Below, piece by piece: positions 12,449 through 61,882 of a stretch of DNA of 64,000 nt. The notes under the pieces were generated by a model, which worked only from the letters and a program-made list of their open reading frames with translations, did no database searches and had not been told where the DNA came from. This stretch comes from an uncultured bacterium (GTDB lineage: Bacteria > UBP4 > UBA4092), in NCBI GenBank assembly GCA_964644695.1, contig CAZXWN010000005.1, forward strand, positions 1 through 64,000, in the 5' to 3' direction. Each line of letters begins with the position of its first letter. The first letter of the stretch is position 1. The position numbers were made by a program, and so were the translations under genes.

Positions 12449-12450
12449 GT

Positions 12451-25684: not shown

Positions 25685-25687
25685 TTA

Positions 25688-41401: not shown

Positions 41402-41425
41402 CGATACCCTCCGTGTAATTAAATG

Positions 41426-41920: not shown

Positions 41921-42016
41921 AGTATCCCTCCACTAAAGAGATTTTAGTAACCCAATATACATTTATGCGCTAATCGTACCATTGCCAATAAGGTATCGTC
42001 AAGGATGAAGTAACGG

Positions 42017-42457
42017 CTAATGAGGCGCCAGCCAAACAAAAGGAATTATCGGTAAATTTCGCAATATTGTATAAACAATAAAGATGACAAAAATGGCTTT
42101 AACAAATTGAGAGGAATAAAGGATAGCATTGTATTTTGAGGGGTCTTTTCTGTGAAGCAAACAGAAAACACCTACACAAGGAACAGCTATCACGGCTAAA
42201 GCATTATAATGAAACGCTGCCAGCAGATTCCCATGTAAAAGTTGGTAAGATGCCCTGAGACTGCCACAACCCGGACAATACCACCCAGTCAATCGGTGAA
42301 AAACACAAAATGGATAAAATGAAAACTGCGCCGGATTATAAAAAAAGAGTATCCCCAGTGCAAACAGGCAAGACAGGATAACTCCTGCCACACCAAAATA
42401 ATAAAAGAACTTGTTCGGAGGAACTTTTAATCCACTTGTAACGGGAGCAAGACTCAT
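42017..42457 (-). CDS. DUF2752 family membrane protein
   Basis: C.F..LTG..CPGCG..RA...LLHG....AF.YN. Confidence 0.9.
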   Translation of the reverse strand: MSLAPVTSGLKVPPNKFFYYFGVAGVILSCLFALGILFFYNPAQFSFYPFCVFHRLTGWYCPGCGSLRASYQLLHGNLLAAFHYNALAVIAVPCVGVFCLLHRKDPSKYNAILYSSQFVKAIFVIFIVYTILRNLPIIPFVWLAPH

Positions 42458-42840
42458 TCACCAGAAACACTTTTTCTCATAGAATAGAAGGCCATCACAG
42501 CAAATACAATAGTCAGCAGGGCAAGAACTATAGCCGCGACAATACCTGCAATATTCCAACTCAATGCATTTTTAGAAGCTTTCTTAGCTTCTTCTTCCTG
42601 CCGTTTTTCAAGGTATTCATTCACTTTTATGGAATAATACAAAGCGATGATACCCGTTATCGGACAAAAACATATGATTGAAATAACTGAGAAAATCAAA
42701 TAGTTTGAAATACCTGTTGAAGAGAGGACACCTTGTGGAGGTGTTACACCTGACTGGACAGGAGCCTGGGTTGATTGTCCACATTTCGGGCAAAAGGTGC
42801 CATTCTCATCTATCTGGTTTCCACAAAATTTACAAAACAT
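42454..42840 (-). CDS. Zinc-ribbon plus CD225/dispanin (IFITM-like) membrane protein
   Basis: MFCKFCG..FCPKCG; NYL..S..S.ICFCP.TGI.A..YS..V, EA..AS..A. Confidence 0.8.
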   Translation of the reverse strand: MFCKFCGNQIDENGTFCPKCGQSTQAPVQSGVTPPQGVLSSTGISNYLIFSVISIICFCPITGIIALYYSIKVNEYLEKRQEEEAKKASKNALSWNIAGIVAAIVLALLTIVFAVMAFYSMRKSVSGE

Positions 42841-45117: not shown

Positions 45118-46350
45118 TTAGAAAGCGACCTTAACTCCACCCTTGACCATCCAGACATCATCTGCACCAATTCCACGGGCGGCAGATAACTTCTCATTAT
45201 CCGGAGTATAATATCCGGCGACGAGTTCTAAGAGAGTATTGTCTGAGTATTGATAAAGAAGGGTAGCATCCACTTCCATACCCAGTGTTTCGTTAGGATC
45301 GACCTGTTTATAATAATAACCATCAATATCAAGAGTCAGCTTGTCAGTGGGGCGAACAGAGAAACCCACATTACCGAACATAATATTACTGACTAAACGA
45401 GTGTTGTAATCCGCAATACGGCCATAACCTTTTTCACTCACATCATCCTGATCAACGTGCCCGATGGGCTGGACAAAATCTTCATCCAGGTAATAGAAAT
45501 TGGCACGAACGGAGGGTTTGATTTCTGAGGCGAAGGTATATTCCACACCAGCTAATCCAGCGATACCTGTTTTCTCACCGGTTAATTCATTGTCCTGATT
45601 GTTGACAGTGAATTCAGCTTTATAGGCCAGTTGTTTTTCCATGAAACTGCCTTTTGCCCGCAATCCACCAATATACATGTGATTATAGAAGGGGAGAATA
45701 ACTCCACTGGGAAGATTAATGACCTGAGCATCAATGAAAGCAGCATAAAAATCAATCTGATGATTTTCAATACCGTTATACATTCCATACATTCCATAGA
45801 CAGCGACATCATCTTCTAGAAGGGGATTATTTTCCCGCATTTTGATATAAAAGAAGTCAATTTTTGTTTCAATCGGAGGAAGAACAGCGGTGAGACTCAT
45901 CCCATCAAATGGCGCATTATTGGGAACCATGAAACCTTCACCAAATTTTGTTTCGTACTGTTTTGGTTCTTCAATTTTGTTTTGGATCATCCAACGACCG
46001 GCACGGAAATAGCCAGGAAAATTAAAGGGCCGTTTTAAAAGAATATAACCTTCGAAAAGGTCAATATTACCTTCATAAGTATTTGCATCAATTCCAATAG
46101 GATTATTGTTGGATCCAAAAGAGTCTTTATATTTCAGGTTAACGCGAGCCATTACATTGTCAGCCAAATCGGCATTCATCCAAAGTAATACTTCGGAATC
46201 CGTAAATTTAGAATCAGGAGCGTCATTACTCGCTATCCACCAGCCACGGGTTTCAAGGGACCCGCCAAATTTAACACCTTCCACAGCGAATGCTGCAGTG
46301 CTGATGGCCAATGCAATTATCAACAGAATTGCAAGCCTTTTATAGTTCAT
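45118..46350 (-). CDS. Outer-membrane beta-barrel protein (alginate-export/porin-like)
   Basis: Signal peptide, amphipathic beta strands, LG.E.D....Y.Y, terminal Phe (GVKVAF). Confidence 0.8.
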   Translation of the reverse strand: MNYKRLAILLIIALAISTAAFAVEGVKFGGSLETRGWWIASNDAPDSKFTDSEVLLWMNADLADNVMARVNLKYKDSFGSNNNPIGIDANTYEGNIDLFEGYILLKRPFNFPGYFRAGRWMIQNKIEEPKQYETKFGEGFMVPNNAPFDGMSLTAVLPPIETKIDFFYIKMRENNPLLEDDVAVYGMYGMYNGIENHQIDFYAAFIDAQVINLPSGVILPFYNHMYIGGLRAKGSFMEKQLAYKAEFTVNNQDNELTGEKTGIAGLAGVEYTFASEIKPSVRANFYYLDEDFVQPIGHVDQDDVSEKGYGRIADYNTRLVSNIMFGNVGFSVRPTDKLTLDIDGYYYKQVDPNETLGMEVDATLLYQYSDNTLLELVAGYYTPDNEKLSAARGIGADDVWMVKGGVKVAF

Positions 46351-46997: not shown

Positions 46998-47097
46998 NNN
47001 NNNNNNNNNNNNNNNNNNNNNNNNNNNNNNNNNNNNNNNNNNNNNNNNNNNNNNNNNNNNNNNNNNNNNNNNNNNNNNNNNNNNNNNNNNNNNNNNN
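46998..47097. other. Scaffold gap (100 N)
   Basis: Run of N. Confidence 1.
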
Positions 47098-47309: not shown

Positions 47310-48395
47310 ATGAAAAAATTAATTGCTTTTATGGCTATCGCTTTATTCTCTATGACTTCAGCTTTTGCCGCCCACAGTTTTGTAACGACATTCAATTTTG
47401 GATCATATGGCACAAGTTCTTTGTATGCCGCTCAATTCATTGAATTGGATGAAGCTTCTGGAAATTTATGGATCGCTTCCGGTGGTACAGGTAACCCTGA
47501 CATTGCCCACATTTTCACAACGGCAGGAGCTCCAGCTTCATTCTCACCAGTTAGCACTGGACTGACCAGTTGGGGAATTTCCACCAACTTCCGTCAGACC
47601 TCTGGTATTGCCATTGATCGGTCAGTAACTCCACATATGGCTTATGTAGTTTCCGATGTAGGAAGCTATGTGAATTTTATCAGCAAATTCAATGCTGGTA
47701 CTGGTGTTGCTGCTAATGGTATTGATTCTACCCTTGGTAAATGGACCACATTCTCACGTGTTGGTGATATTCAATTTGATAACGCCGGCCGTTTATACAT
47801 GGTCCAGAAAGTTAGCCCGACTGGTGGAGCAACCTGTTTTGTCCTCGACAAAAACACGGGTGCTGCATTAAACTCTGGCAATGCAATCGTTGTTGGTGGT
47901 GGAGCTATTAAACGAGGCATGGGCGTTTCCAGTGATGGAAACACAATTTACCTTGCTGATGAGTCTTTGGATATCCTTTGGAAAGCTACAGGAACTGCTT
48001 CCTCTATCAATTCCACATCCAATGTGACTTACAGCCTTGCGACATTCGTCAACTATGGTAACTCTTCAGCGAACCCAAGTGCTTGCGAAGTTGATGCCAA
48101 TGGTAATGTCTATGTTTCTGTAACTGGTCTTGCTGCTTCTACGACTGGTTTTGTGCGCGTTGAAATCTACAATGCCGCTGGTACTTTAGTAGAAACCATT
48201 GCACCGACTGTTCCAATGGTGGATGGTGCTGCTTTCATGCCAAGAGGTGTTGCTTTCAGCAGTGCTGATGCAATCAATAATGATTTATATGTAGCACGCT
48301 TCATGACTATCAATTGTAATTTAACCAGCTCTGGACCAATAGCCAAGTTCTCGAACTTGTCTGCAGTTTCTAACTGGTCTGATTATTCATTCTAG
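47310..48395 (+). CDS. Secreted beta-propeller-like (NHL/SMP-30-like) protein with C-terminal VSNWxxY motif
   Basis: Signal peptide ending AFA; repeats SGIAID, GDIQFDNAGRLYM, RGMGVSSDGNTIYLAD, EVDANGNVYV, PRGVAF; Ser/Thr/Gly-rich. Confidence 0.75.
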   Translation: MKKLIAFMAIALFSMTSAFAAHSFVTTFNFGSYGTSSLYAAQFIELDEASGNLWIASGGTGNPDIAHIFTTAGAPASFSPVSTGLTSWGISTNFRQTSGIAIDRSVTPHMAYVVSDVGSYVNFISKFNAGTGVAANGIDSTLGKWTTFSRVGDIQFDNAGRLYMVQKVSPTGGATCFVLDKNTGAALNSGNAIVVGGGAIKRGMGVSSDGNTIYLADESLDILWKATGTASSINSTSNVTYSLATFVNYGNSSANPSACEVDANGNVYVSVTGLAASTTGFVRVEIYNAAGTLVETIAPTVPMVDGAAFMPRGVAFSSADAINNDLYVARFMTINCNLTSSGPIAKFSNLSAVSNWSDYSF

Positions 48396-48416
48396 GCTTT
48401 ATAGCTAAGCTATAAT

Positions 48417-48444
48417 AAGGGCGGAAGTTTTTCCGCCCTTTTTT
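48417..48444 (+). terminator. Intrinsic terminator
   Basis: aagggcggaa-loop-ttccgccctt followed by a T run. Confidence 0.8.
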
Positions 48445-48478
48445 ATTTATAAATACATAACTACAAGAGGCTAATAGG

Positions 48479-49663
48479 ATGAAGAAGATATTTTTCACTG
48501 CAGTCATGTTCCTTCCCATGATCGTTTTTGCTGACCCCATATCCATCCATGAATATTATCAGAAGGCTGAACAAGCTATAAAAACAAACGATTTACAGAA
48601 TGCACTTTCAACCTTAAGTACTGCAGTGACTATTTATCCAAACGAAGCAAAGGCATGGTATAACCTGGGGGTAGTTTATAAAAATCTGAATCATGCTGAT
48701 TCCGCTGGGGATTGCTTTTCCAAAGCTATAGAGATAGACCCCAAGATGAAAAATGCCAGATTTAATATGGCAAAAGTCAGGACTCTCCGGTCCAGTAAAT
48801 ATTTTGATTTAGCGAAAGCCATTGATGATTTTGATGCCCTGTTCAAAGATGACCCCACTGATTATCGAATTCTCATTGAACTGGCAGACATCCATTATCG
48901 GCAAAAATCCATGCCCAAATTAAAAGAAACAGCAGAATTAATGGAGAAGTTATCTCCAGAAAGACCTGAAACATATTACTATGCGGGTATGGTAGATGAG
49001 TATAGCGGTAATATTGAAAAGGCTTTGAGTACATATAGCAAAGGTTATATCATTAACCCAAAGTCCGATTTATTAAAAGATAAAGTCTGGGAAAACACGA
49101 TACGGATGGGGCATTTATCCTATCAGAAAGGTAATCTAAAAGAGGCATATCCCTGGTATAAAAAAGCTTTTGAATTTGATTCAGCCCGACCCGAGACATA
49201 CCTTGTTTTAGGTCAAACTGCCATTCTGGCGGGTGATGAACAAACAGCATTACTGGCTTACAGTCGGTTCACTGGATTCAGACCGGATTCCTGGCTTGGT
49301 TACGCCAACATAGCAGATATTATTTCTAAAGATAAAAACCAGCGAGATAAAGCCCTTCATCTCGCTATGGGAGCCATCAGTCTTTCCGGTGACCGATGGG
49401 AACCCAGGGATACTCTGGGTTGGATTTACCTATGTCGTGGAGACATTCCAGAAGCAAAAAAACAGTTTCAATGGATTGCCAACGCTCATAAAGCTAATTG
49501 GACAATACTCACAAAAGGTAACTATCTAAAAGCCCTTAAAGAACTTAAAAAGATGCCCCCGGCATCATATCCTCACCTTTTAGCTCTCATAAAGAAGGAA
49601 AATGCACCTCGAGCCCAATGGCTTGCCCAGCGAGTTAAAACGAATATACCCATTCCAAGATAA
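48479..49663 (+). CDS. Exported tetratricopeptide-repeat protein
   Basis: Signal peptide; multiple TPRs (AWYNLG.VY......A...F.KAIEIDP; DTLGWIY). Confidence 0.88.
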   Translation: MKKIFFTAVMFLPMIVFADPISIHEYYQKAEQAIKTNDLQNALSTLSTAVTIYPNEAKAWYNLGVVYKNLNHADSAGDCFSKAIEIDPKMKNARFNMAKVRTLRSSKYFDLAKAIDDFDALFKDDPTDYRILIELADIHYRQKSMPKLKETAELMEKLSPERPETYYYAGMVDEYSGNIEKALSTYSKGYIINPKSDLLKDKVWENTIRMGHLSYQKGNLKEAYPWYKKAFEFDSARPETYLVLGQTAILAGDEQTALLAYSRFTGFRPDSWLGYANIADIISKDKNQRDKALHLAMGAISLSGDRWEPRDTLGWIYLCRGDIPEAKKQFQWIANAHKANWTILTKGNYLKALKELKKMPPASYPHLLALIKKENAPRAQWLAQRVKTNIPIPR

Positions 49664-49766
49664 TACCCCATAGTTTTAATTAACTTCCATTTTATAAACG
49701 AGAGGTATTCTTTATTCTTGGGCTATAATTTCAGAGAAGAAGAGTCAACAATTAGCGAGGAAGGTT

Positions 49767-50609
49767 ATGGAGATAATTATTGCTGGAAATGCGGGTTTTT
49801 GCTGGGGTGTTAAAAGAGCCATGAAAGCCGCTGAAGACAGCACAGCCGCCAATCAGGGTCCTGTCACATCTCTGGGTCCCATTATTCATAATCCAACGAT
49901 TGTAGAGCGCCTGAAAGAAAAAGGCCTGCATACCGCTAAGACCTTGGATGAAATCAATACCGGTACCGTTCTGATTCGAGCCCATGGCGTTGCTCCGAAG
50001 ACCATGACCGAGATTCAGAAAAAAGGATTGAAGGTCGTGGATGCCACCTGCCCCATCGTAAAAAAATCACAGCGATATGCTCAGCGGTTAACTGAACAGG
50101 GTTACCAGGTTGTGATTATTGGAGATAAGAACCACCCTGAAATTATCGGGATATTAGGGCATACCGATGGCAAAGCCATTGTCATCGATACTCCAGAAGA
50201 AGCGGAAAAGCTGGAGATCAAAGGTAAAATAGGCCTGATTGTACAAACCACCCATTCTGCCGATGAATATCGGAAAATTGAAGATATTCTCCGAAAACGA
50301 GGCGCTGAAGTATTTGTCAGTGATACCTTATGTTTTGAAACCACTCGACAACAGTCCAGTGCGGTAGAGGTATCGCGTCAGGTCGATGTTATGATTGTCG
50401 TCGGTGGGCGTAACAGCGCTAACACCGTTCGGTTATATAATCTTTGCCGCGAAACAGGTGTGGATACCTGGCATGTAGAATCCGCAGAAGAACTTCAACC
50501 CGAATGGTTCATTGGAAAGAATAAGGTTGGTTTGACGGGGGGAGCCTCTACACCGGACTACCTGATCAATGAAGTAGCCGAATGGGTCGCATCTTTACCC
50601 ACCCCATAA
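49767..50609 (+). CDS. ispH: 4-hydroxy-3-methylbut-2-enyl diphosphate reductase
   Basis: AGFCWGVKRA, IIHN, RAHG, DATCP, HPE, QTT, T.C..T..QQ, SANT, GASTP. Confidence 0.96.
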   Translation: MEIIIAGNAGFCWGVKRAMKAAEDSTAANQGPVTSLGPIIHNPTIVERLKEKGLHTAKTLDEINTGTVLIRAHGVAPKTMTEIQKKGLKVVDATCPIVKKSQRYAQRLTEQGYQVVIIGDKNHPEIIGILGHTDGKAIVIDTPEEAEKLEIKGKIGLIVQTTHSADEYRKIEDILRKRGAEVFVSDTLCFETTRQQSSAVEVSRQVDVMIVVGGRNSANTVRLYNLCRETGVDTWHVESAEELQPEWFIGKNKVGLTGGASTPDYLINEVAEWVASLPTP

Positions 50610-50620
50610 CAGCTAAGTCA

Positions 50621-50649
50621 TTGACTTGCATCAGTCAAGATAATATAAT
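50621..50649 (+). promoter_or_regulatory. Sigma70 promoter with an inverted repeat over the -35 box
   Basis: TTGACT-17-TATAAT; TTGACT-N6-AGTCAA palindrome. Confidence 0.65.
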
Positions 50650-50715
50650 ATCAACAGCATAGCCTTGAGCGGGCGGTGTTAAATCTTATAGAAATCCATG
50701 AGGGTTTTGTAAATA

Positions 50716-52041
50716 ATGTCTAACTTTATTAAAACATTTATTATCACTGGTTTTATCGTTTTAATGAGCGTAGCTGGATTTGGTCAAACTGCTGAACAAA
50801 CCATCCGAAATGCAAATTGGTACACTGTTCAGATTGCTCCGGGTCTCAGTTGGAAAACCTGCTCCTTTGCAAGCCTGTTTAATTCCAAACAGGATATTTA
50901 TGTAGGGACTGTCGACTTAAATCAACAAAACATCAAATTGTCGTTCTCCTACACATCAGGAGGAGGAAAGACAGTAAGCACTTATGCTGCTCAAATTCCG
51001 GGAACTATGCTGGCTGTCAACGGAAATTACTATGACACCTCCAATTATATCCCTGTCCAATATATGCGAGTGACCGGATACAGTTATTTACCGGGATACA
51101 AATACAGTGGTACAGGTGCGGTCGTATCTGATTCCACCGGAAGATCAGTCAATGTCCTTTTTAAAAACAATATCGGTGGAAACTGGGCTGCCCTCTCTCA
51201 ACCTAACGTTATGGCAACACTCTATAATCTGATTGAGAATGGCCAGAATACGCTGTCTAATGACACCTATATGGCTTATAACCGGCATCCCCGTACTGTA
51301 ATAGGTAAAACCGCTGACAATAAACTCCTGATTGTTGTCGTTGATGGGCGAACTACTCGTGCGGCCGGGATGACCTTTGCTGAATTACAGGTATTAATGA
51401 AAGCATTGAACTGTACGGATGCGATCAATATGGATGGCGGTGGTTCATCCACCTTCTGGGTTAAGGGGTATGGAACAAACGGTGTCGTTAATAAACCTTC
51501 AGATGGAAGTCAACGAGCCGTAGCCAACGCAATCAACATCGTTCTGACACCTGTTGTGGGTGCAAATGAAACTATCTATGAATCGGCGACTGGTGGACAA
51601 AATAATGCCTATTATACTGAAACAGGTGTTTGGGGCGATAATGCTACAGCCTGTGGGGCAATAGGTGTTACTCCTGGACTGGGAACACGATATGGGTCCA
51701 CTTATACATCTGTCGCAGGTGTAAAAAAAGCCCGTTTTACCCCAGTATTCAGTAAATCCGGTCAGTACAAAGTCTATGCGACATGGCCTGCAGCCGTCAG
51801 CCGACGGGCAGGTATTCTCTATCGGGTCAATCATACGGGTGGATTATCTTCTGTAACAATCAACCAGTCCACTCAGGCCGATAATTGGGTCTTACTGGGC
51901 ACTTATACTTTTGCGCAAGGTAGTGCTGGCTATGTAGAAATCAGCAATGAGAATCTGGACCTCTCGGGAAGTATGTATGCGGGTGCTATCAAGTTTGAAG
52001 AGATTACCCCTTCAAGCGTATCTAACTGGTTAAAATACTAA
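50716..52041 (+). CDS. Secreted phosphodiester glycosidase (NAGPA/DUF2233) with a C-terminal beta-sandwich (golvesin/CBM-like) and VSNWxxY tail
   Basis: AVNGNYY, RHPRT.IG, VVDGR, A.NMDGGGSST, RAVANAI; G.Y.VYA.W, INQ....NWVLLGTY.F. Confidence 0.85.
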   Translation: MSNFIKTFIITGFIVLMSVAGFGQTAEQTIRNANWYTVQIAPGLSWKTCSFASLFNSKQDIYVGTVDLNQQNIKLSFSYTSGGGKTVSTYAAQIPGTMLAVNGNYYDTSNYIPVQYMRVTGYSYLPGYKYSGTGAVVSDSTGRSVNVLFKNNIGGNWAALSQPNVMATLYNLIENGQNTLSNDTYMAYNRHPRTVIGKTADNKLLIVVVDGRTTRAAGMTFAELQVLMKALNCTDAINMDGGGSSTFWVKGYGTNGVVNKPSDGSQRAVANAINIVLTPVVGANETIYESATGGQNNAYYTETGVWGDNATACGAIGVTPGLGTRYGSTYTSVAGVKKARFTPVFSKSGQYKVYATWPAAVSRRAGILYRVNHTGGLSSVTINQSTQADNWVLLGTYTFAQGSAGYVEISNENLDLSGSMYAGAIKFEEITPSSVSNWLKY

Positions 52042-52060
52042 AACTCCGTAAATCATAAAT

Positions 52061-52104
52061 AAAAAAGACCTGCCGGAAACATGTTTCCGACAGGTCTTTT
52101 CTTT
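52061..52104. terminator. Bidirectional terminator
   Basis: aaaagacctgccggaaac-at-gtttccgacaggtctttt. Confidence 0.85.
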
Positions 52105-52112
52105 ATTAAGAC

Positions 52113-53621
52113 TTATTGATTTGCTTTATTGAGCAGGAGTCTAACAAAAGTACGAACCCCTACCCCCGTTCCACCATAGGTATCATATCCCTTGGGTGAT
52201 TCTGAATAGGCCGTTGCTGCTATATCTAAATGAGCCCATGGGATGGGTTCAATAAACACTTCCAGGAATTTAGCGGCCGTGATAGCTCCCCCTTCACGCC
52301 CTCCCGTATTTTTCACATCAGCAATTTTGCTTTTAATTAAATCACCATATTCTTCATCCATGGGCATCGCCCACAGTTTTTCACCTGACTGTTGAGCGGC
52401 TTCCCACAAATCCGCCTCCAAATCTGCGTTATTGGTGAATAAACCCGTGGTAAAAGGTCCCAGGGCAATACTACAAGCTCCAGTCAATGTGGCGACATCA
52501 ATGACAGGGGCGAGCTTCCGAGTCTTTGCATAATGCAGAGCATCCGCCAATATCAATCTGCCCTCAGCATCTGTATTCAAAATCTCAATCGTTTTTCCAC
52601 TCATGGAGGTGAGAATATCCGCCGGTCGGCAAGCATTCCCATCGGGCATATTTTCTGTGGCAGGAACTAATGCGGTTACATTCACTTTCGGCTTTAAGAG
52701 AGCCACAGCCCGCATGGCTCCGATAACAGCGGCTGCACCGGACATATCTGACTTCATTTCGTGCATATTCTGAGCCGGTTTGAGTGAAATTCCACCAGCA
52801 TCAAAAGTCAGTCCTTTTCCAACCAGTCCAGTGGTGACCTTTGAACTCTTATTACCGACATATTCCATAATAATAAAACGAGGCTCCTGGGTGCTTCCTG
52901 CGTTTACTCCCAGTAATCCACCCATTTTCAATTTCTGGATTGCTTTTTTATCCAAGACCGTACATTTCAGACCTGTTTCCTTTGCCATCAACTGACATCG
53001 GCGGCCCAGCTCAGAAGGAGTTAGTATATTGGGAGGCTCGTTCACCAGTTCTTTGGCATAATTAACAGACTCACCCACAATTTGTCCGACCTTAAGATTT
53101 CCCCGAGTCCCTGGAATATCCTGCTCCTCAGGAACAATAATCCCGATGCTGATATCACGGGATTTTACTGCATTACTTTTTCCGGACTGATATTTTTTGA
53201 ATTCGTAAGACCCCATTACCATGCCTTCAGCAAAAGCTGAAACATTCATTGAATTGTCCAGATTTTTTAATTCTGTACCCGGTAGAAGAGTGATGATATT
53301 CTTTGCTTCCCATGCCTTCGCTTTACGAAGGATATCTGAACCTGCAAGCCGCGTCTTATTGGTATCATATTTAGCAGATTTTCCAAGACCCAAAATGACC
53401 AACTTATCCGTTTTCAGTTTACCCAGAGTGTGAATGGAAGTAATTTCTCCCGATTTCCCTGTCAATTCCTTCCGTTTTATCAGCATGGATAAATGTCCAT
53501 TAAGCTTCTGATCAATTTTCTTTAGAACACCCTCTAATGGGGATGTTCCCTCAAATAAATAAGTAAACAATACATCGGCAGGAACTGTTGTAACATCTGC
53601 CTTTTTTACTGTAAACTGCAT
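52113..53621 (-). CDS. pepA: Leucyl aminopeptidase (M17)
   Basis: VGKGLTFDAGG, MKSDMSG, NTDAEGRL, DVATLTGA, WAHLDIA; start at MQFTV. Confidence 0.96.
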   Translation of the reverse strand: MQFTVKKADVTTVPADVLFTYLFEGTSPLEGVLKKIDQKLNGHLSMLIKRKELTGKSGEITSIHTLGKLKTDKLVILGLGKSAKYDTNKTRLAGSDILRKAKAWEAKNIITLLPGTELKNLDNSMNVSAFAEGMVMGSYEFKKYQSGKSNAVKSRDISIGIIVPEEQDIPGTRGNLKVGQIVGESVNYAKELVNEPPNILTPSELGRRCQLMAKETGLKCTVLDKKAIQKLKMGGLLGVNAGSTQEPRFIIMEYVGNKSSKVTTGLVGKGLTFDAGGISLKPAQNMHEMKSDMSGAAAVIGAMRAVALLKPKVNVTALVPATENMPDGNACRPADILTSMSGKTIEILNTDAEGRLILADALHYAKTRKLAPVIDVATLTGACSIALGPFTTGLFTNNADLEADLWEAAQQSGEKLWAMPMDEEYGDLIKSKIADVKNTGGREGGAITAAKFLEVFIEPIPWAHLDIAATAYSESPKGYDTYGGTGVGVRTFVRLLLNKANQ

Positions 53622-53857
53622 AGAAAAAAATCTCCTGTTAATATTTGATTTCACACAAAACAAAAGAATCCACGGAACACATCAAGAAAGTATTTTTCAA
53701 CCGTTATTATTTGTTTTATCTATTATTGATAATACTACAAATACAACTTATGATTTTTATTCTGCCTTCCGGATTTCCGCCAAATCTATAACGAATTTAC
53801 CCCTCTTCAGATGAACAGCCATTTTGAGTTATGATGAATAGGTGAGGTGATATAAAG

Positions 53858-54040
53858 ATGGAAAACGACTTAACCGCTAAAAAAGAACTTAAACTCAAAT
53901 GCGATACCTGTGGAAAAATTGTTACTTCTGTAGCCCGAGTTGTCATTGAAGATACCTATGACCGGTCCATGGCTAAAGCCTTATACAATTGTCCAGAATG
54001 TTTTGCTAAAAAAGAGCAACAGCGGAAACAAAAAGAATAA
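53858..54040 (+). CDS. Small hypothetical zinc-ribbon-like protein (60 aa)
   Basis: GAGGTG RBS; CDTC...CPEC pairs; fills the intergenic space. Confidence 0.7.
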   Translation: MENDLTAKKELKLKCDTCGKIVTSVARVVIEDTYDRSMAKALYNCPECFAKKEQQRKQKE

Positions 54041-54089
54041 TATTAGGTGTTCTTAGTCTACAGACTTTAACAGGATAAGATATCAAGTT

Positions 54090-55301
54090 TTATTTGTTTG
54101 ACGATTTTGGTGGGACGTTCTTTTTTGAGGGGATGCTTTTGGATTCTCTATACAGAGTAGATCGTTGGACAGTGTTTTTTCCGTATTTCTCATTTAGCTT
54201 ATCCAGAGCAGCGGACAGTCTTGTTAATTTCTCCACTTTTTCGTGTAAAAATGAGACTTGTTCTATCTCATCAGAAAAACCTGAAACAGAAACCCCAATC
54301 AAACGAACTGGAAGATTTGATTTCGGAACCGTCTTCCATAAAACCAATACCCTTTCAAATATCAGGTCAGTCTGATCTGTTGGTTCATCCAGTAAACATT
54401 GCCGTGTATAAGTCTTGAAATCAGAATAACGAAGTTTTACTGTGACTGTTTTACCTTTAACACCCTGCTTACGAAGGCGATATGAAACTTTCTCTGTTAA
54501 TCCCAGAAAGGTCGTTCTCAGAACTTCCATGTTCGTCTGATCAAAACTAAAGGTTGTTTCGTGTCCAACAGATTTGGGCGCTGTGTATGGGATAACTTCT
54601 CGATCATCCTGATTATTTGCCAAAGCATGCAGATGGCGCCCAGATGCACCAAACATTTTTTCCATCATATCTATGGGCATCCTGGCAAGCTCGCCCACAG
54701 TTTTTATGTTTAAACGACTCAGGGCCTCATTCATTCGTTCCCCTACACCCCAAAGTACTTTCACCGGTAAGGCCCACATAACTTCCAATTCTTTCTCGGG
54801 GGGGATAATAACAAACCCTTCTGGCTTCTTCATATCGGAGGCAATCTTGGCAAGAAGCTTCGTAGAAGCTAATCCGCAGGAAGCGGTTAGTTTCAATTCT
54901 TCTTTAATACGGGTTTGTATCAGGCGGGCAGTTTTTTCAGCAGGGCCCTGCATAAGTTCTGTCCCTGTCAGATCAATAAAGGCTTCATCGACAGAGACAG
55001 GTTCAACCAGGGGAGAGTATTCTTGAAAGATAGACATAATCTGTTCCGAAGCTTCATGGTATAAATTCATCCTGACAGGCAGAAATATTCCATGAGGACA
55101 TCGCCGGCTGGCTTCATGGATAGCCATTCCAGCTTTAAGACCAAACTTACGGGCTTCATAAGAAGCTGATGAGATGACACCACGGTGTCCCTTCAGTCCA
55201 CCTACAATAACAGGCTTCCCATTTAAATCAGGGTTTTCCCGTCGCTCAACAGCAACGTAAAAACAATCCATATCAATATGAAGTATTTTTCGGAAGGACA
55301 T
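54090..55301 (-). CDS. dinB: DNA polymerase IV (Y family)
   Basis: HIDMDCFY..VE, ASYEAR.FG, SVDEAF.D, LAK.ASD..KP.G. Confidence 0.96.
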   Translation of the reverse strand: MSFRKILHIDMDCFYVAVERRENPDLNGKPVIVGGLKGHRGVISSASYEARKFGLKAGMAIHEASRRCPHGIFLPVRMNLYHEASEQIMSIFQEYSPLVEPVSVDEAFIDLTGTELMQGPAEKTARLIQTRIKEELKLTASCGLASTKLLAKIASDMKKPEGFVIIPPEKELEVMWALPVKVLWGVGERMNEALSRLNIKTVGELARMPIDMMEKMFGASGRHLHALANNQDDREVIPYTAPKSVGHETTFSFDQTNMEVLRTTFLGLTEKVSYRLRKQGVKGKTVTVKLRYSDFKTYTRQCLLDEPTDQTDLIFERVLVLWKTVPKSNLPVRLIGVSVSGFSDEIEQVSFLHEKVEKLTRLSAALDKLNEKYGKNTVQRSTLYRESKSIPSKKNVPPKSSNK

Positions 55302-55325
55302 AATTCCACTGATTAAAACCCTTTT

Positions 55326-55955
55326 TTAATTACATTGACGCAGGACAGCTGTCACCTTGCCTAGAACTCGGAACTCATTGTCTCGGGGAGAAACCATAAT
55401 AGGTTCCATCGCAGGATTTTCAGGTTGCAGCCTAACCGTTCCCTTTTCTCGAAAAAACCGTTTAACAGTTGCTTCATCACCGATCAAAGCAACAATAATA
55501 TCTCCATTACGCACTTCTGAAGTTGGTTGAACCATCACCAAGTCTCCATCCAGGATATGGGCATTGATCATACTTTCTCCCCTCACCCGAAGTGCAAAGA
55601 TTTCTCCTGGTTTTCCAAAATCTTTATCTAATCTGATTCGGCCTTCCAAATTTTCATCAGCTAAGATTGGACTGCCCGCAGCAACCTGTCCAACAATAGG
55701 AATTGACAACGAGTCTGGTATAGAAAAGGCTTCGGGGGGAAGATAACCATCTGCTAATTCCAAATGGCGAGATTTTCGGCTACCCCGTTTTAGGAATCCT
55801 TTTCGCTGGAGGGCGGATAGATGATCAAACATACTGGATGAGGCTATACCAAAATGGTCTCCTAATTCACGAACAGTCGGGGGCATCCCTTGTTCCCGAT
55901 AAAATTCTCGAATAAATTCTAATACCTCAGCCTGTCGTGGAGTTAAGTCTTCCAT
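55326..55955 (-). CDS. lexA: SOS repressor LexA
   Basis: LT.RQ, PPTVREL, VAAG cleavage site, GESM (Ser) and TVKR (Lys) dyad. Confidence 0.96.
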   Translation of the reverse strand: MEDLTPRQAEVLEFIREFYREQGMPPTVRELGDHFGIASSSMFDHLSALQRKGFLKRGSRKSRHLELADGYLPPEAFSIPDSLSIPIVGQVAAGSPILADENLEGRIRLDKDFGKPGEIFALRVRGESMINAHILDGDLVMVQPTSEVRNGDIIVALIGDEATVKRFFREKGTVRLQPENPAMEPIMVSPRDNEFRVLGKVTAVLRQCN

Positions 55956-55976
55956 GAAAATCTCCTTTTTTCAGTA

Positions 55977-56020
55977 TACCTAACAATTGTTATGGTAGCT
56001 AAAACATGATTTTCTGTCAA
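55977..56020 (-). promoter_or_regulatory. lexA promoter with an overlapping palindrome (candidate SOS box)
   Basis: Minus strand TTGACA-17-TACCAT; perfect palindrome TAACAATTGTTA at 55981-55992 over the -10/+1 region. Confidence 0.6.
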
Positions 56021-56106
56021 ACTATTTCCTCCAGTTAACAAGAATGGAATCAACTAAAACAAATAAAAACGCGGAGGTATGACGAAGGATAAAAAAACGG
56101 AACGGA

Positions 56107-57288
56107 TTAGCGGTTGGCAAGCCAGTCCTGAGGATCCAGAGTTGAAGTACCTTTTCGGATTTGGAATTCCAGTTGTGGACCTTCTAATGAACCCGTATCA
56201 CCGACGGCCCCAATATATTGTCGCCGCTTCACAACAGTTCCTTTTTGGGCGGCAATCCCAGACAGATGCATATATAAAGTCATATAACCTTCACCATGAT
56301 CAATAATAATTGTATTCCCTGATCCTTCTAACCATCCGGCATATCGAACCATTCCATCATGTACAGAATACACAGCCGTCCCCACCGGTGCTTTTATCCC
56401 AATGCCATGAGAATATACTTCCACCTGTCCCTCAAGAATTTTATGTTTTCCAGGACTATAGATAACATTCCCACCTGCAACAGGCCAACCTAGTTTTCCA
56501 CGGGATTGAGAGAAATTTCCACCAGCATACCCCTCGGGGAATTTAACCTGCTTTGCCCGTAATTCAGCTAAAAGGTTTTCCAACCGTCTAACAGCAGCTT
56601 GCAATTCTCTAACGGTCCTGTCATATGTAGCTTTATCTGTTCTGATACGACTCAAAAGACTCTGTTTTTGCTTATTCTCACCTTCATATTTTTGTTTTGA
56701 TATAGAAATTTCCTGTTGCTGAGCTTTCTGATATCTAAGCATCTCATTAATACGAAATTCCTGCCGCCTAATCTTGGAAGCTTCATAACGAACATTAGAG
56801 AGGGCCTTGGCATCGGTATATGCCAATATCCGCATATACTGAAAATTGCGAATTTGGGAAGCATAATCTTCACTGGCAAGAATTTGACGGAAAGGGCTGA
56901 TACTCTTAGCCCTATAAATAGACCTTACTCGAAGAGCGAGATATAGTTGATGTTGATTTAAGCGACTTTGCGCAACAAGCAATTCACTTTGAAGTTGCTG
57001 GGTAGTTTGTTCATTCTTATTTACTTCACCCTCAAGACGGTTTAACTGTTGGCTCGAAGACCGAATACGCTGATTAATGCCTTCAATTTGCCTTAGTACA
57101 CTACGTTCTTCTTGTGCAGCTCGTTGTTTATTTAGTTCGGCCTGTCGGATTTTCTCTTGCATGACTTTCAGTTCCGACTCTGTTTTACCAACTGTCGAAT
57201 CTTGAGCCAGAAGCGGCCCACTCACTGAACCTGTGAGTAATACCATTAAAAAGCCTACGATAATACTGCTTTTAAAAAATAATTTCAT
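56107..57288 (-). CDS. envC: Murein hydrolase activator EnvC-like (coiled coil plus degenerate M23 domain)
   Basis: Signal peptide, long coiled coil, L.WPV, IIIDHG, GDTGS; Zn ligands degenerate (GPQLEF); downstream of ftsEX. Confidence 0.85.
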   Translation of the reverse strand: MKLFFKSSIIVGFLMVLLTGSVSGPLLAQDSTVGKTESELKVMQEKIRQAELNKQRAAQEERSVLRQIEGINQRIRSSSQQLNRLEGEVNKNEQTTQQLQSELLVAQSRLNQHQLYLALRVRSIYRAKSISPFRQILASEDYASQIRNFQYMRILAYTDAKALSNVRYEASKIRRQEFRINEMLRYQKAQQQEISISKQKYEGENKQKQSLLSRIRTDKATYDRTVRELQAAVRRLENLLAELRAKQVKFPEGYAGGNFSQSRGKLGWPVAGGNVIYSPGKHKILEGQVEVYSHGIGIKAPVGTAVYSVHDGMVRYAGWLEGSGNTIIIDHGEGYMTLYMHLSGIAAQKGTVVKRRQYIGAVGDTGSLEGPQLEFQIRKGTSTLDPQDWLANR

Positions 57289-58139
57289 TTCAGTTTAATG
57301 TGGCGGAAGGATTCCAGTAAAGTCGCAAGAAAGCTCAGGCATACTCCAGCCAATAATAGACCACCCATCATAGTCCCTGGCATAAAAATGAGATTCTCAA
57401 TTTTTAGGCGGGTCACACTGTAGATAGAATAAAGAAAACACAAGGCTAGACTACTGCCTACTAATCCATAAAAAATAGATTCAAGCAATATGGGAGCTCT
57501 AATGAAAGCAGAAGATGCACCACAGGACTGCAATATTTCAGAATCCTTGATGCGATCAGTAAATGTCATTTGGAAAGCAATAATTGCCAAAACAAGAATA
57601 ATAAATGTAAAAGCTCCACCAACAACCCAGACATAATGACGAATGGTATCCAATGTTTGTGTAATATTACCTAGACTTTCCTGTCCATAATCAACCATAT
57701 CAACACCAGGTATGGAAATAATCGAATCAGCTATAGCTTTCAGATGACCTGGAGCAAAGGCAGTACGGGTTTTTACTTCAATAGTATCTGGTAAAGGATT
57801 GAAACCCAGAATTTCAATTTCTTGACGGATATCGGGTTTCTCGGCAATTTCTTGAAGGGCTTCTTCGCGAGTGATTAATCGAACTTCTGCTGCACCAGGA
57901 ATATTCTTAATTTGCTCCGCTATTGAAGCGGCATCAGACCGACTCCCTTCCTTCAAGAAAACCAATATACCCATTTCCTTCGAAAGGTACTGCTGTGCTG
58001 AATTAATATTAAAAGCGACCCAGCTAAATAATCCCATTACGGAAACAATAACGGCAACAATTAATACCGCACTTATACCCGCGCGTTCATAGCGGGTCAC
58101 ATTCTTCCAAGCTTCTCTACTATAATATCCAATTCGCAT
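57285..58139 (-). CDS. ftsX: Cell-division permease FtsX
   Basis: TM1, large periplasmic loop (EEAL, NPLP, I.GV..V.YG), three TMs, GAS..FIR.P..LE. Confidence 0.85.
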   Translation of the reverse strand: MRIGYYSREAWKNVTRYERAGISAVLIVAVIVSVMGLFSWVAFNINSAQQYLSKEMGILVFLKEGSRSDAASIAEQIKNIPGAAEVRLITREEALQEIAEKPDIRQEIEILGFNPLPDTIEVKTRTAFAPGHLKAIADSIISIPGVDMVDYGQESLGNITQTLDTIRHYVWVVGGAFTFIILVLAIIAFQMTFTDRIKDSEILQSCGASSAFIRAPILLESIFYGLVGSSLALCFLYSIYSVTRLKIENLIFMPGTMMGGLLLAGVCLSFLATLLESFRHIKLK

Positions 58140-58166
58140 GTCTCATTAATCCTTCAAAAACATCCA

Positions 58167-58841
58167 TTACACATCTGCTACAGGATGTTCTATAATTGCC
58201 CCATTTTGAATTTCCACAACTCTTTTTACTCCCAGGGTTTCTGAGGGAAGAGTATATGTAGCAACCAGAATGGTTAATCCACGGCGAACATTTAAGTCCT
58301 TAAACATTTCCACCATGGAATGAACTTCATCCACTGTAAGATACGCAAACGGGTCATCCGCTAACAATATCGCAGGATGAAGTAAAAGTGAACGAGCAAT
58401 GGCTAATTTTTGAGCCTGGCCCCGGGACAATTCTCCAGGCAATGAATCAGCAGCAAACTCCAACCCAAATTGGGACAATACTTCACGGGTTCTTTGATCA
58501 GCTTCCCGCCCAACAGTACCACTGGCATATAGAATATCGGAAAGATTTTCATAAACTGACCGAGTTTGCATAAACTGAGGTTCTTGCGATATCCAACCAA
58601 TTCGGCGACGAAGCAAGGGGATTTCTTTATGGGTCAACTTCGCAAGATCACGACCAAAAACATTAACCTCACCCCGCGTTGCCAATTCATATCGTAGCAG
58701 TAACTGGAATAATACACTGGTTCCACTACCAACGGTACCACCAATCAACACATAATCACCCCGTGGAATATGTAAATTTGCTTCCCGAAGCACTACAGTT
58801 TCAGGTGGAAATACTTTGGTTACATGTTTTAGTTCAATCAA
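58167..58841 (-). CDS. ftsE: FtsE-like ABC ATPase with degenerate catalytic motifs
   Basis: V.K.F, IP.LRRRIG, SVYEN, upstream of ftsX; Walker A GTVGSGTS, signature LSRGQ, Walker B LLADDP, switch ATY. Confidence 0.8.
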   Translation of the reverse strand: MIELKHVTKVFPPETVVLREANLHIPRGDYVLIGGTVGSGTSVLFQLLLRYELATRGEVNVFGRDLAKLTHKEIPLLRRRIGWISQEPQFMQTRSVYENLSDILYASGTVGREADQRTREVLSQFGLEFAADSLPGELSRGQAQKLAIARSLLLHPAILLADDPFAYLTVDEVHSMVEMFKDLNVRRGLTILVATYTLPSETLGVKRVVEIQNGAIIEHPVADV

Positions 58842-58934
58842 GTTTCTGATTCCATTGCAGATATAGATTTTTACCGGGCAGTAGCCCTGATAACATTTAT
58901 AATGATACCTTAATCATACAGGAGGGGCAATGTT

Positions 58935-59795
58935 ATGACCCTACATAGAAACATTATTTTCCTGCTTATGACGATCTATATCTCATGGTCATGGGCAGTA
59001 AATCAAACCACATCTTCTTCCATCAAAGGACCTGTTGCTCCACACCGCCGAGATGTCCCAGGTGCTCGGATATCTATCTCTCTTGGGAAAATATACCAAC
59101 CGGAATACTATCAAACACCTACCGATGGGAAATATTCTCTTGTTGTCTTTTTCCATGGAGCTTCCTGGTGCGCCGAACAAAACTTTTATGACTCTGGTAA
59201 AAAAGCAATTCTACTATCGGTTAACACACTGGATTACATGTCCACTTTTCATAATACCAAACGATTTAATGAATTGTTGACAGAAGTCTCATTGGCCCTG
59301 TCATCAACGTGGGGCATTCCCTCCACATTTAGAAAGGAATTGGTATTAATATCTTTTAGTGGAGGATATTTGGCTATACGGGAAATACTCAGTAATCCTG
59401 AATATTATGATGAAATTGGTGGAGTAGTTTTAGCAGACTCACTCTACACTAGATTCTTGGATGTAGAAAGAACAAAAACTCACCCAGATGATATAGCTCC
59501 ATTTCTCAGATTGGCTCAAGATGCAGCATCATCAAAAAAACAGTTTTGGTTCACTCAACTCTATCCCCCGGAATGGAGATATCGTAATAATTCCACCACT
59601 CGAACAGCTGCTTATCTCTGCGATAAGCTAAAACTAAGTAAAAGACCTCGTAATGAGACTAATACGCTTCGGATGACATTGCTCTATTCTGCTGAAACAG
59701 GGAGATTCCACATCATGGGATATCAAGGGATGACAACCCAAGACCATTTTAATCACTTCTACAATCTATCTGAATATATTAGAAAACTGGAGTAA
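58935..59795 (+). CDS. Exported hypothetical protein, probable alpha/beta-hydrolase fold
   Basis: Signal-like N-terminus, LVVFFHG, LISFSGGY nucleophile elbow, LADSLY, late DH. Confidence 0.6.
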   Translation: MTLHRNIIFLLMTIYISWSWAVNQTTSSSIKGPVAPHRRDVPGARISISLGKIYQPEYYQTPTDGKYSLVVFFHGASWCAEQNFYDSGKKAILLSVNTLDYMSTFHNTKRFNELLTEVSLALSSTWGIPSTFRKELVLISFSGGYLAIREILSNPEYYDEIGGVVLADSLYTRFLDVERTKTHPDDIAPFLRLAQDAASSKKQFWFTQLYPPEWRYRNNSTTRTAAYLCDKLKLSKRPRNETNTLRMTLLYSAETGRFHIMGYQGMTTQDHFNHFYNLSEYIRKLE

Positions 59796-59803
59796 TCCAA
59801 TCG

Positions 59804-61882
59804 CTAATATTGAGTCCAATCATTCACAGGGACAGTTGTTACAGTATCCAGAATCCAGTTATCCGGGTCAAAGACAATTCCCGATATAGTTTTAGATACC
59901 CCTAAGTCCAGGTTAAACTCCTGGGTAGCATATTGGGTATTCCACACATTAACAATTTTTGATGATCCATCACTAAAATTAACTTTAATGTCTATTGGCA
60001 TTATATACTGTGAACCAGATTGTGTTTGACTAATTCTCAGCATCAATCGAGTACTAGAGCCCTGTGTATACTGTCCCCATTGAACATTATATGCAGGTCG
60101 AACTGCCTGATACAGCCATTCATTAAAAAACCAACTTAAAGTGGTATTAGTACTCAACGCATTTTCCATGTGTCTTTGAAAATCTGGTGTTAGTGCATTT
60201 CCATACAACAATGTAGTATCACCAAAATAACTATTTAATCCCTGAAAAAACGATTCGTTACCCATGACTTTGCGTAACATATGAAGTACCCAACCACCTT
60301 TTCGATACACAATAGAGCCACTGAAATTATCTGCACTACTACTTATTATGGGATATGTATCCGCAGTAGTCCAAGCATTCACGTACGTAGAATAAGAATA
60401 TGTTCCATACTGGTTTTCAACCCAGAGCGCTTCGGCATAAGTAGCAAAACCTTCGTTTAACCAAAGATGATCAAAATGTCGCATCGTAATTCCGTCACCA
60501 AACCATTGATGGGATAACTCATGGCAATTAGTTCTACCTCTTCCATCTGGAGATAAAAGACCCGGCCCCAGACTTGTTGCCGTCTGATGTTCCATACTGG
60601 AGGAATCATTATGAGTCGCCACTGTATACTTTTCCTTCAGAAAGGGGTATTCCCCAAACTTACTACTAAAGAATTTGATCATTGCAATGGTTCCATTGAC
60701 ACCATTACCCTCACTGGAAACTCGTTCTGGATATATGTAATTACCTACGGTCATTCGACTATTACCATCCAACGAGGTATAAACTCCATAGAGATATTGA
60801 TAATTAGTACAGGCCACCGAAATCAGATACGATGAAATAGGATAATCCTCTTTATAATGGAGAGTGTGTTGACTACCAGATGTTATGGTCCCAACTAAAA
60901 GACCATTCGATACGGGAAAATAAGATGTTGGACAAGACCAGTATAAGTCACATGTGAATTTGTCATCTGGAATATCTTTACAGGGAAACCACTGCCGGGC
61001 GCCATAGGGTTCGCTAAAAGAATAAACAAGAGGCACAGAGGGTGTTCCATGAGTAGTTCTAATATAAGCGGCACTGAATATTTTATTAGGATCAGGTGTC
61101 CCGGCATAAAATACTCGGACTGTAAACATACTGTACTGTAAAAGGGGTTGTGGTAATCCAATAGATAACCAATCACCAGAAGTACTCCAAGACAAAACAC
61201 TAGTACCGGGACCACGATCGACAGACTTTACAGAAAAACTTCCACCATTATTATCAAAATCTAGAACTATTGTCTGTAAACTATTCGTCGAATCAAGACT
61301 CATTCCTATTAAAGTTGCATTTGCTGTTATTCGGCTACTAGTCATAGTAATCTGGTGGTTAAGAATTAAATGCTTCATGTCATACCGAAGCTGTGAAGGA
61401 TGTGTGGTTGGTTGGACAGAGGCTTTTGCTGGTTTAACACCAAAAACTCGACTGAAATGCGCTTCCTCATCTGTATATTTGAGCTCAAACAGCATAATAG
61501 ATGTCAATAAAACTTTATCCTGCCCGATGGAGGGTTGAATCATCATTTCATTACGACCAGACTTTAGATAATCAGATGGAATTATGTAATAAATCCCGTC
61601 CTCACCTGTAACGGGTCGAATATCCAGTGTATTTCCATTAACAAGAATGGCACCCCATGATTTTCCTGATATTCTCAAACCATATGAGTTTCCAGGTTTT
61701 TGAAGCATTTTGAAAACTATTGGTTGTTCAATCTGAGATGATAAAGGGTCACCTGAATTAAAGGTTATTTGGAGGGGAATATCACGATTAATAGTGTCAA
61801 AATCTAAGGGAATTGCGTATACAAAAACTACTAACCCAATGAGTATTGGCACAGTAAATAAAAGTCTAATCCAATTTTTCAT
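59804..61882 (-). CDS. Secreted M1-family zinc aminopeptidase with C-terminal VNDWxxY motif
   Basis: Signal peptide, EPYGARQWFPC.D.P.DK, SMEHQ, HELSHQWFGD...WLNEGFATY, VY.KG..VLHMLR; start at MKNWI. Confidence 0.92.
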   Translation of the reverse strand: MKNWIRLLFTVPILIGLVVFVYAIPLDFDTINRDIPLQITFNSGDPLSSQIEQPIVFKMLQKPGNSYGLRISGKSWGAILVNGNTLDIRPVTGEDGIYYIIPSDYLKSGRNEMMIQPSIGQDKVLLTSIMLFELKYTDEEAHFSRVFGVKPAKASVQPTTHPSQLRYDMKHLILNHQITMTSSRITANATLIGMSLDSTNSLQTIVLDFDNNGGSFSVKSVDRGPGTSVLSWSTSGDWLSIGLPQPLLQYSMFTVRVFYAGTPDPNKIFSAAYIRTTHGTPSVPLVYSFSEPYGARQWFPCKDIPDDKFTCDLYWSCPTSYFPVSNGLLVGTITSGSQHTLHYKEDYPISSYLISVACTNYQYLYGVYTSLDGNSRMTVGNYIYPERVSSEGNGVNGTIAMIKFFSSKFGEYPFLKEKYTVATHNDSSSMEHQTATSLGPGLLSPDGRGRTNCHELSHQWFGDGITMRHFDHLWLNEGFATYAEALWVENQYGTYSYSTYVNAWTTADTYPIISSSADNFSGSIVYRKGGWVLHMLRKVMGNESFFQGLNSYFGDTTLLYGNALTPDFQRHMENALSTNTTLSWFFNEWLYQAVRPAYNVQWGQYTQGSSTRLMLRISQTQSGSQYIMPIDIKVNFSDGSSKIVNVWNTQYATQEFNLDLGVSKTISGIVFDPDNWILDTVTTVPVNDWTQY

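Follow-up and report, generated by a model that had tools for sequence, protein, structure and literature searches.

Three exported proteins of different fold, encoded in 64,000 nucleotides of DNA from an uncultured bacterium (GTDB lineage Bacteria; UBP4; UBA4092; contig CAZXWN010000005.1 of assembly GCA_964644695.1, positions 1 to 64,000 of the forward strand, hereafter the window), end in the same short peptide, V-[SN]-[ND]-W-x-x-Y. This tail lies at or next to the C-terminus, is conserved among the homologues of its carriers, recurs on further unrelated proteins with signal peptides, is restricted, among carriers with a source name, to the Sumerlaeota lineage, and is exchanged for known sorting signals in homologues from other phyla. 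We suggest, with about even confidence, that it is a short linear sorting tag of Sumerlaeota-type diderms which acts after Sec-dependent transport and probably serves export across the outer membrane.

The first carrier (47310-48395, plus strand) is an exported protein of 361 amino acids, called from its open reading frame (ORF) as a six-bladed SGL/NHL propeller-like protein; the Pfam match to SGL is weak (24.8 bits, under the cut-off of 26.3), and SGL/NHL clusters at 0.95 back the fold call. Its N-terminus is signal-peptide-like by our own heuristic (MKKLIAFMAIALFSMTSAFA), and its C-terminus, ...KFSNLSAVSNWSDYSF, closes with SAVSNWSDYSF and the stop codon at 48360-48395, so that W-x-x-Y stands two residues short of the end. 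The second (50716-52041, plus strand) is an exported NAGPA phosphodiester glycosidase of 441 amino acids with a signal peptide, in which Pfam places NAGPA at residues 97-275 and a Golvesin_C beta-sandwich at 299-428; an AlphaFold2 model was built, the nearest solved structures are 3ohg and the NAGPA structure 6pki, and the C-terminus, ...KFEEITPSSVSNWLKY, closes with SSVSNWLKY and the stop codon (52012-52041). The third (59804-61882, minus strand) is an exported M1 metallopeptidase of 692 amino acids, identified by Pfam (Peptidase_M1_N followed by Peptidase_M1), an AlphaFold2 model and a signal peptide; its C-terminus, ...DTVTTVPVNDWTQY, closes with VPVNDWTQY and the stop codon (59804-59833). 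The longest ORF of this gene opens at a TTG at 61939, and the ATG at 61882 yields MKNWIRLL...; we take the ATG as the likely start because this N-terminus matches that of the 692-residue, 94%-identical homologue P0121. Three to five residues follow the tail W in the window proteins.

A preliminary description of the window had reported these three tails, the end coordinate 61882 (the likely start of the M1 gene), three different folds and an N-terminal signal peptide on each protein, and all of this was borne out, the signal-peptide-like start being present on 3/3 carriers by a crude, home-made heuristic that flags 18/56 gene models of the window, including pseudopilins and a heptosyltransferase (likely a false positive). 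It had also stated that the cytoplasmic proteins lack the tail, in agreement with which, of all 56 gene models, the three carriers alone have W..[YF] within four residues of the C-terminus.

The tail in homologues, further families and structural models

Searches at E<=0.001 returned 460 proteins for the NAGPA carrier and 2961, among 8000 scored candidates, for the M1 carrier; the best 120 of each were inspected, together with 25 library representatives of the propeller. The pattern W..[YF].{0,4}$ occurs in 30/120 listed NAGPA matches, 37/120 listed M1 matches and 6/25 propeller representatives. Pooled over the three families, the tails of these 73 homologues among the matches listed give the consensus [STA]-x-V-x-[DNGS]-W-x-[LVI]-[YF]. 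W and the closing aromatic residue (Y in 61 tails and F in 12, at W+3) were fixed by the regular expression used for selection; at the other positions, W-3 is V in 47 and I in 10 tails (V or I in 57/73), W-1 is D in 26, and W+2 is L in 25. The Y or F is the very last residue in 58/73. The linkers flanking the tails vary freely between homologues in the alignment. By our own heuristic, 63/73 carriers have a signal-peptide-like start, and from their sequences most of the ten without one look like truncated gene models. The motif is thus wider than the three proteins in which it had been noticed.

The closest homologues are 94-98% and 56-68% identical to the window proteins. For the propeller, the 72%-identical P0241 has an identical tail and the 56%-identical P0242 ends in TAVENWMGYSF. 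The 36 best NAGPA matches, read by eye, comprise 27 that fit the tail pattern, six more that retain the W (ending in DWMHR, DWMNR, IWAVR and NWEVN, and two with 7-9 residues beyond the Y), and three without a tail, namely P0018 and the two proteins P0034 and P0035, both of which are also without Golvesin_C. In an alignment of 33 hand-picked rows (A1: the window NAGPA protein, P0002-P0033 minus P0018 and P0024, plus P0036 and P0051), the tail W is present in 33/33 rows and is one of 32 invariant columns; because these rows were chosen by hand, 30/120 is the unbiased figure for the family.

Among M1 peptidases the tail is more variable. Eighteen of the 120 listed matches end in a W-less variant of two hydrophobic residues and a tyrosine, G-[FYAM]-[FMC]-[LF]-Y-COOH (e.g. 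GFFLY, GAMLY); its bearers, M1 proteins of ~1020-1060 amino acids, include P0150, P0156, P0159, P0165, P0169, P0172 and P0176. The least that all tails have in common may thus be two hydrophobic residues followed by a C-terminal Tyr. A FastTree phylogeny was computed for 118/120 of the M1 matches, two shorter than 560 amino acids having been dropped, and the last 15 residues were cut before alignment. In this tree W-type and hydrophobic-Y tails are spread across all subclades of 108 rows, with terminal branches of 0.1-0.8 changes per site.

A second tail type, ...PVELSxFE(x)I..., was seen at the same site on homologues of the M1, propeller and NAGPA proteins (P0126-P0130, P0244, P0246, P0248, and a homologue at L068:10001-11776). 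Aligned with MAFFT, its L, F and I fall on the V, W and Y of the W-containing tail, and the five second-tail proteins in the M1 tree form one clade (support 99) adjoining the subclade of the window protein. The string VELSxF was sought in the listed loci, where only the L068 homologue was found. The second type is perhaps a sister form of the W-containing tag.

All tail-bearing matches with a source name come from Candidatus Sumerlaeota, Sumerlaeia, Sumerlaeaceae, Ca. Sumerlaea chitinivorans or candidate division BRC1, which supports a link to Sumerlaeota (BRC1) that the preliminary description had suggested. A scan of genome contigs with a generic pattern yielded at least 80 loci, 11 of them labelled Sumerlaeota and 69 from Bacteroidota, Planctomycetota, Myxococcota and others; none of those listed comes from a close relative of the window organism. 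Among the loci listed, the NAGPA homologue is tailed in 8/11 Sumerlaeota loci (of the remaining three, one closes with ...ENWEVN, one with ...VSVSTFSME and one has no tail), as against 0/66 complete homologues of other phyla; three more run off their contigs. Further to that, a position-specific scoring matrix (PSSM) trained on 43 M1 and propeller tails only, at a threshold of 8.5 bits, picks out 11/733 ORFs of the Sumerlaeota loci versus 0/2584 ORFs of the other listed loci; in the window it recovers 3/96 ORFs, which are the three tailed proteins, two of them close kin of the training set. The window organism has a G+C content of 42%, versus 52-67% in the six Sumerlaeota loci measured; it is therefore placed no more precisely than near Sumerlaeota, its closest named relatives.

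Stop-to-stop ORFs of at least 100 amino acids in the Sumerlaeota loci supplied four further carriers, all classified by Pfam: a beta-helix/NosD protein ending in ...SSMWVLY (L002:3-3059), an MtrC/MtrF-like multihaem cytochrome ending in ...PSAWTIY (L002:9008-10780), an FG-GAP and ASPIC/UnbV protein ending in ...SDGWVLY (L002:10740-12344) and a FlgD_ig protein ending in ...GDSWTKYE (L017:2514-4127). A signal peptide opens three of the four, the remaining one being truncated at the edge of its contig. L002 is a 15-kb locus of a Ca. Sumerlaeia metagenome-assembled genome (contig JAHCAW010000078.1), on which the beta-helix, NAGPA, MtrC/MtrF-like cytochrome and FG-GAP/ASPIC genes put four tailed genes into ~12 kb (positions 1-12344). 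That an MtrC-like cytochrome bears the tail is a hint that electron transfer in this lineage may take place at the exposed surface. Carriers thus belong to at least seven Pfam-distinct types, otherwise unrelated. Several proteins of the window that normally reside in the periplasm or outer membrane are without the tail (a PpiC/SurA-like peptidyl-prolyl isomerase, an M23/EnvC-like protein, an LTXXQ protein, a TPR protein, a beta-barrel outer-membrane protein and GspD), as are, among the Sumerlaeota loci listed, alpha-2-macroglobulin, Amidase_3 and GH97 proteins.

Could the tails be a chance resemblance or an artefact of gene calling? The motif is short and was defined after being seen. Redrawing the C-terminal 12 residues of all 56 window proteins, each from the composition of its own protein, gave at least three tails of the loosened form [VILA]..W..[YF].{0,4}$ in a fraction of 5e-5 of 20000 trials (P about 5e-5). 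The core [VILA]..W..[YF] occurs at 11 places in the 56 proteins, three of them terminal versus 0.16 expected (P=4.5e-4). As the motif was defined post hoc, both figures are generous, and its recurrence in relatives is the stronger argument. Taken together, the 73 tailed homologues, the comparison of Sumerlaeota loci with those of other phyla and the PSSM scan make this explanation effectively refuted. A repeat at the DNA level was ruled out as the source of the shared tail by the lack of extended identity, the tail-coding DNA of the three genes having a mean identity of 61% and no extended shared stretch.

In the two carriers that were modelled, the NAGPA and M1 proteins, the tail is predicted to be a disordered appendage outside the fold. 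The AlphaFold2 model of the NAGPA protein, built with A1, has a mean predicted local distance difference test score (pLDDT) of 89.8 and its last strand at residues 424-430; pLDDT falls from 95 over 421-430 to 56 over 431-440 and 39 at residue 441, and a single helical turn at 438-440 is the only secondary structure of the tail. The M1 model, built with A2 (35 hand-picked rows), has a mean pLDDT of 88.9 and last strands at 666-671 and 680-681, after which the tail (682-692) is coil, with a mean pLDDT of 57 for 681-690 and 48 for 691-692. Over both models the score drops from about 90-95 to 39-57 at the tail. An integral strand of either fold, which would have spoken against a separate signal, is not what the models predict.

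Relation to described C-terminal signals

The tail occupies a site where other phyla put recognised sorting signals, because MYXO-CTERM and type IX secretion system (T9SS) domains are found there. In Myxococcota, homologues of the NAGPA protein close with a hydrophobic stretch and a cluster of arginines (RRRR ends), and two of them are named MYXO-CTERM by the Joint Genome Institute; NAGPA homologues of other lineages stop at the end of Golvesin_C (...ADAVKFELQ). In the M1 tree, eight proteins with T9SS-type C-terminal domains (PF18962 or FlgD_ig) lie in a separate 10-row clade (support 100).

No sorting family modelled in NCBIfam or Pfam was matched by the tail. Against the last 44 residues of the three proteins, NCBIfam gave 0 families at E<=10, a search in which the filters of HMMER may drop very short matches, and Pfam at E<=10 gave only the end of Golvesin_C upstream of one tail and nothing over any tail. 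Full-text literature searches, whose coverage did not extend to subscription journals and supplements, returned no description of such a tail; in the accessible text of the Sumerlaeota genome paper (PMC8092238), chitinases are noted to have signal peptides and no sorting signal is mentioned. In the work by Haft (10.1101/2023.06.07.544157), a sorting signal is expected near the C-terminus, several times per genome, with at least three signature residues, on proteins that have signal peptides and are otherwise non-homologous. The tail agrees with these non-membrane features in position, in multiplicity (three carriers in the 64-kb window and four in the 15-kb L002 locus), in signature residues, in signal peptides and in the unrelatedness of its carriers.

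Like the tripartite signals LPXTG, PEP-CTERM, GlyGly-CTERM and MYXO-CTERM, the tail stands at the extreme C-terminus of unrelated proteins with signal peptides, has a few near-invariant residues and is restricted to a lineage. Unlike them, it has neither a hydrophobic transmembrane helix after the motif nor a cluster of Arg/Lys, and ends in Y or F instead. Lacking a transmembrane segment and a basic cluster, it cannot be read by an intramembrane sortase-type enzyme and does not imply a lipid or wall anchor. With the C-terminal domain of the T9SS (Por_Secre_tail, PF18962) it shares the C-terminal position on Sec-dependent hydrolases, and homologous M1 peptidases carry that domain at the same place. 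That domain folds into a beta-sandwich of some 70-100 residues, whereas the tail has 9-11 residues, is disordered in the models and gives no match to PF18962 or TIGR04183 on the three proteins.

The aromatic last residue and its hydrophobic neighbours recall the beta-signal of outer-membrane proteins (OMPs) and the Y-x-F ends read by DegS, signals that are recognised in the periplasm. However, the carriers are soluble, the tail lies outside the last strand, and its conserved residues are spaced at i, i+3 and i+6 and do not alternate; the beta-barrel protein of the window itself ends in ...GGVKVAF. A functional analogy can be drawn to peroxisomal targeting signal 1 (PTS1) and Pex5, where a very short C-terminal peptide on folded proteins is bound by a soluble receptor and a translocon passes folded cargo: here, too, folded proteins from many families bear a tiny C-terminal tag. 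The two differ in domain of life, in compartment and in sequence, and no TPR receptor is supported in the window. Type I secretion system (T1SS) signals are likewise C-terminal and uncleaved, some proteases ending in acidic and then hydrophobic residues, but T1SS substrates are without N-terminal signal peptides, and signal-peptide-like N-termini are present, by our own heuristic, on 3/3 window carriers and 63/73 homologues.

To our knowledge, the small C-terminal sorting signals of bacteria fall into two kinds: tripartite signals that span the membrane and are cleaved by intramembrane sortase-like enzymes, and folded domains, as in the T9SS. C-terminal sorting signals are known as a concept; the design seen here, which is short and unstructured, has no membrane segment and occurs on Sec substrates of a diderm, matches no described class that we compared.

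Type II secretion genes and other features of the window

For the export of proteins across the outer membrane, the window shows a single system, a type II secretion system (T2SS), encoded on the minus strand at 110-11471 and identified with Pfam. The set looks complete: gspE, F, G, H, I, J and K, a PilM/PilN-like L, M, a GspC/PilP-like lipoprotein and gspD, whose product scores 453.7 bits on TIGR02517 (cut-off 351). GspI (7064-7468) was assigned from its position and an N_methyl match only. The GspK-like minor pseudopilin (5155-6474, minus strand) has three HHH_3 stretches (E=7e-28) between its T2SSK domains. The major pseudopilin GspG (7997-8428, minus strand) ends in ...DDVTSW and six further residues; the Pfam T2SSG profile stops at this W, and the solved GspG structure 3g20 aligns DDIGNW there. 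The end of the GspG family, D-[IV]-x-[SN]-W, has the same V/I-x-x-W spacing as the tails and resembles their [VI]-x-[DNS]-W core, a resemblance that we treat as a lead only, since we roughly estimate the chance of one further match of this kind among 56 proteins at ~0.1.

Directly upstream of gspE and on the same strand, genes for an extracytoplasmic function (ECF) sigma factor, a zf-HC2/RseA_N anti-sigma factor and an LTXXQ (Spy/CpxP-like) protein stand head-to-tail (11927-13541, minus strand; Pfam). This arrangement suggests an envelope-stress module coupled to the T2SS genes.

A periplasmic TPR protein encoded between two of the tailed genes (48479-49663) was considered as a receptor and set aside. 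Among its 60 matches are two true orthologues (95% and 42% identity); the others are generic TPR proteins, none named Sumerlaeota in this word-indexed search of limited reach. A tag found across the lineage would need a conserved reader, which a protein with only two true orthologues in this search cannot be.

A run of exactly 100 N at 46998-47097, probably a scaffold gap, lies ~210 bases upstream of the propeller gene and makes uncertain both the promoter region of this gene and its linkage to a porin-like gene at 45118-46350. Scans of the window for Rfam families and transfer RNAs gave no matches. Elsewhere in the window, a BshC match is followed by adjacent genes for a GT4 glycosyltransferase and a PIG-L deacetylase (22890-26395, plus strand), which would be of the BshA and BshB types, so that the organism probably makes bacillithiol. 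Four consecutive genes for small membrane proteins occupy 40994-42840 on the minus strand: zinc-ribbon with TM2, zinc-ribbon with DUF4870, DUF2752 and CD225.

Possible role of the tail and its implications

If the tail is a sorting tag, a carrier would cross the inner membrane by Sec and fold in the periplasm, where a flexible Pro/Ala/Ser/Thr linker would present the 7-9 residue peptide [STA]-x-[VI]-x-[DN]-W-x-[LVI]-[YF]-COOH, with V, W and Y at i, i+3 and i+6. A receptor would bind this peptide transiently and commit the folded protein to exit from the periplasm, and the cargo would end secreted or displayed at the surface. Binding is likely to be transient because a disordered peptide of 7-9 residues resembles a targeting motif more than a stable anchor. 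The T2SS would be the leading candidate route, as it is the sole exporter in view and MYXO-CTERM and GlyGly-CTERM proteins, whose signals take the equivalent position elsewhere, travel by T2SS. A bolder version of this proposal is that the tail is the first linear T2SS secretion signal, which would bring proteins folded in the periplasm to the Sumerlaeota Gsp machinery much as PTS1 does to its own translocon, possibly by mimicking the C-terminus of GspG; this we consider unlikely.

The preliminary description had read the tail as a sorting or secretion signal, for outer-membrane export or surface tethering, and this reading is upheld in part: the tail extends to many homologues and to four further families, is missing from the other proteins of the window, is predicted to lie outside the fold and matches no sorting family in Pfam or NCBIfam, and from these features we infer the function. 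Several observations weigh against it. Eighteen M1 matches retain V..W without the terminal Y, and a few tails run on for 7-13 residues further (P0025, P0027, P0180), which together weaken a strict need for a free carboxylate. Some likely exoenzymes are without the tail, namely a GH2 protein of 1349 amino acids in the window and, in Sumerlaeota loci, several glycosidases with signal peptides, a GH57/CBM protein and a rhamnosidase, so that the tag would mark a subset of exported proteins. Across the 11 listed Sumerlaeota loci, 3-4 flanking genes are tailed, three of them in one locus. No receptor, anchor candidate or co-occurring machinery was found in the analysis; no PDZ domain turned up in any of the 56 gene models scanned, those of the T2SS included, and we know of no linear signal in T2SS substrates elsewhere.

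What else could keep such a peptide at the end of so many proteins? It could retain rather than release, as a non-covalent docking tag that holds an exported protein to an outer-membrane protein, to lipopolysaccharide or to a surface layer, a minimal analogue of dockerin or of the type-B T9SS domain. The MYXO-CTERM and T9SS domains that other phyla have at the tail site end in surface attachment, several carriers (the MtrC/MtrF-like cytochrome, the FG-GAP/ASPIC and beta-helix proteins) are expected at the surface, and W and Y favour membrane interfaces; yet a disordered peptide of 7-9 residues would bind weakly and transiently, which suits targeting better than anchoring, and no anchor candidate came to light. 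We hold this to be possible, if doubtful. A ligand of a periplasmic PDZ-type protease or sensor, as the Y-x-F ends of OMPs are for DegS, DegP or Prc, would make the tail a degron, a maturation signal or an input by which the ECF sigma/anti-sigma pair senses the periplasmic load of exoproteins. Tails that close on Y or F in 58/73 cases, usually after L, V or I, do resemble PDZ ligands, and the sigma factor, RseA_N-type anti-sigma factor and LTXXQ genes adjoin the T2SS genes. However, the best-conserved residues are W and the V at W-3, not the last two or three positions, the 18 M1 matches mentioned above have kept V..W and lost the terminal Y, the window gene models include no PDZ protein, and a pure sensor input would need no conservation on each of many families, all of which renders this account very unlikely.

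More improbable still is a lineage-typical appendage that takes no part in sorting, such as an aromatic clamp that binds glycan or substrate, a handle for oligomerisation or an autoinhibitor. Two of the three window carriers are hydrolases that act on polymers, and W and Y are typical sugar-stacking residues; against this, the same peptide is found on at least seven unrelated folds, a cytochrome and a propeller among them, it is always terminal, joined to the fold by a variable linker and disordered in the models, and bona fide sorting signals replace it in other phyla.

Should the tail indeed be a sorting tag, an unstructured, non-membrane peptide of 7-9 residues on Sec-exported proteins of diderms would be a design different from those described, and would imply a new receptor. 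If the T2SS were its reader, the tail would give a handle on the old open question of how this system recognises its cargo. It might also serve as a portable export label. For the organisms themselves, the tag would let the exoproteome of an uncultured, globally distributed phylum be predicted from sequence, including its peptidases, its glycosidases and a possible extracellular cytochrome.

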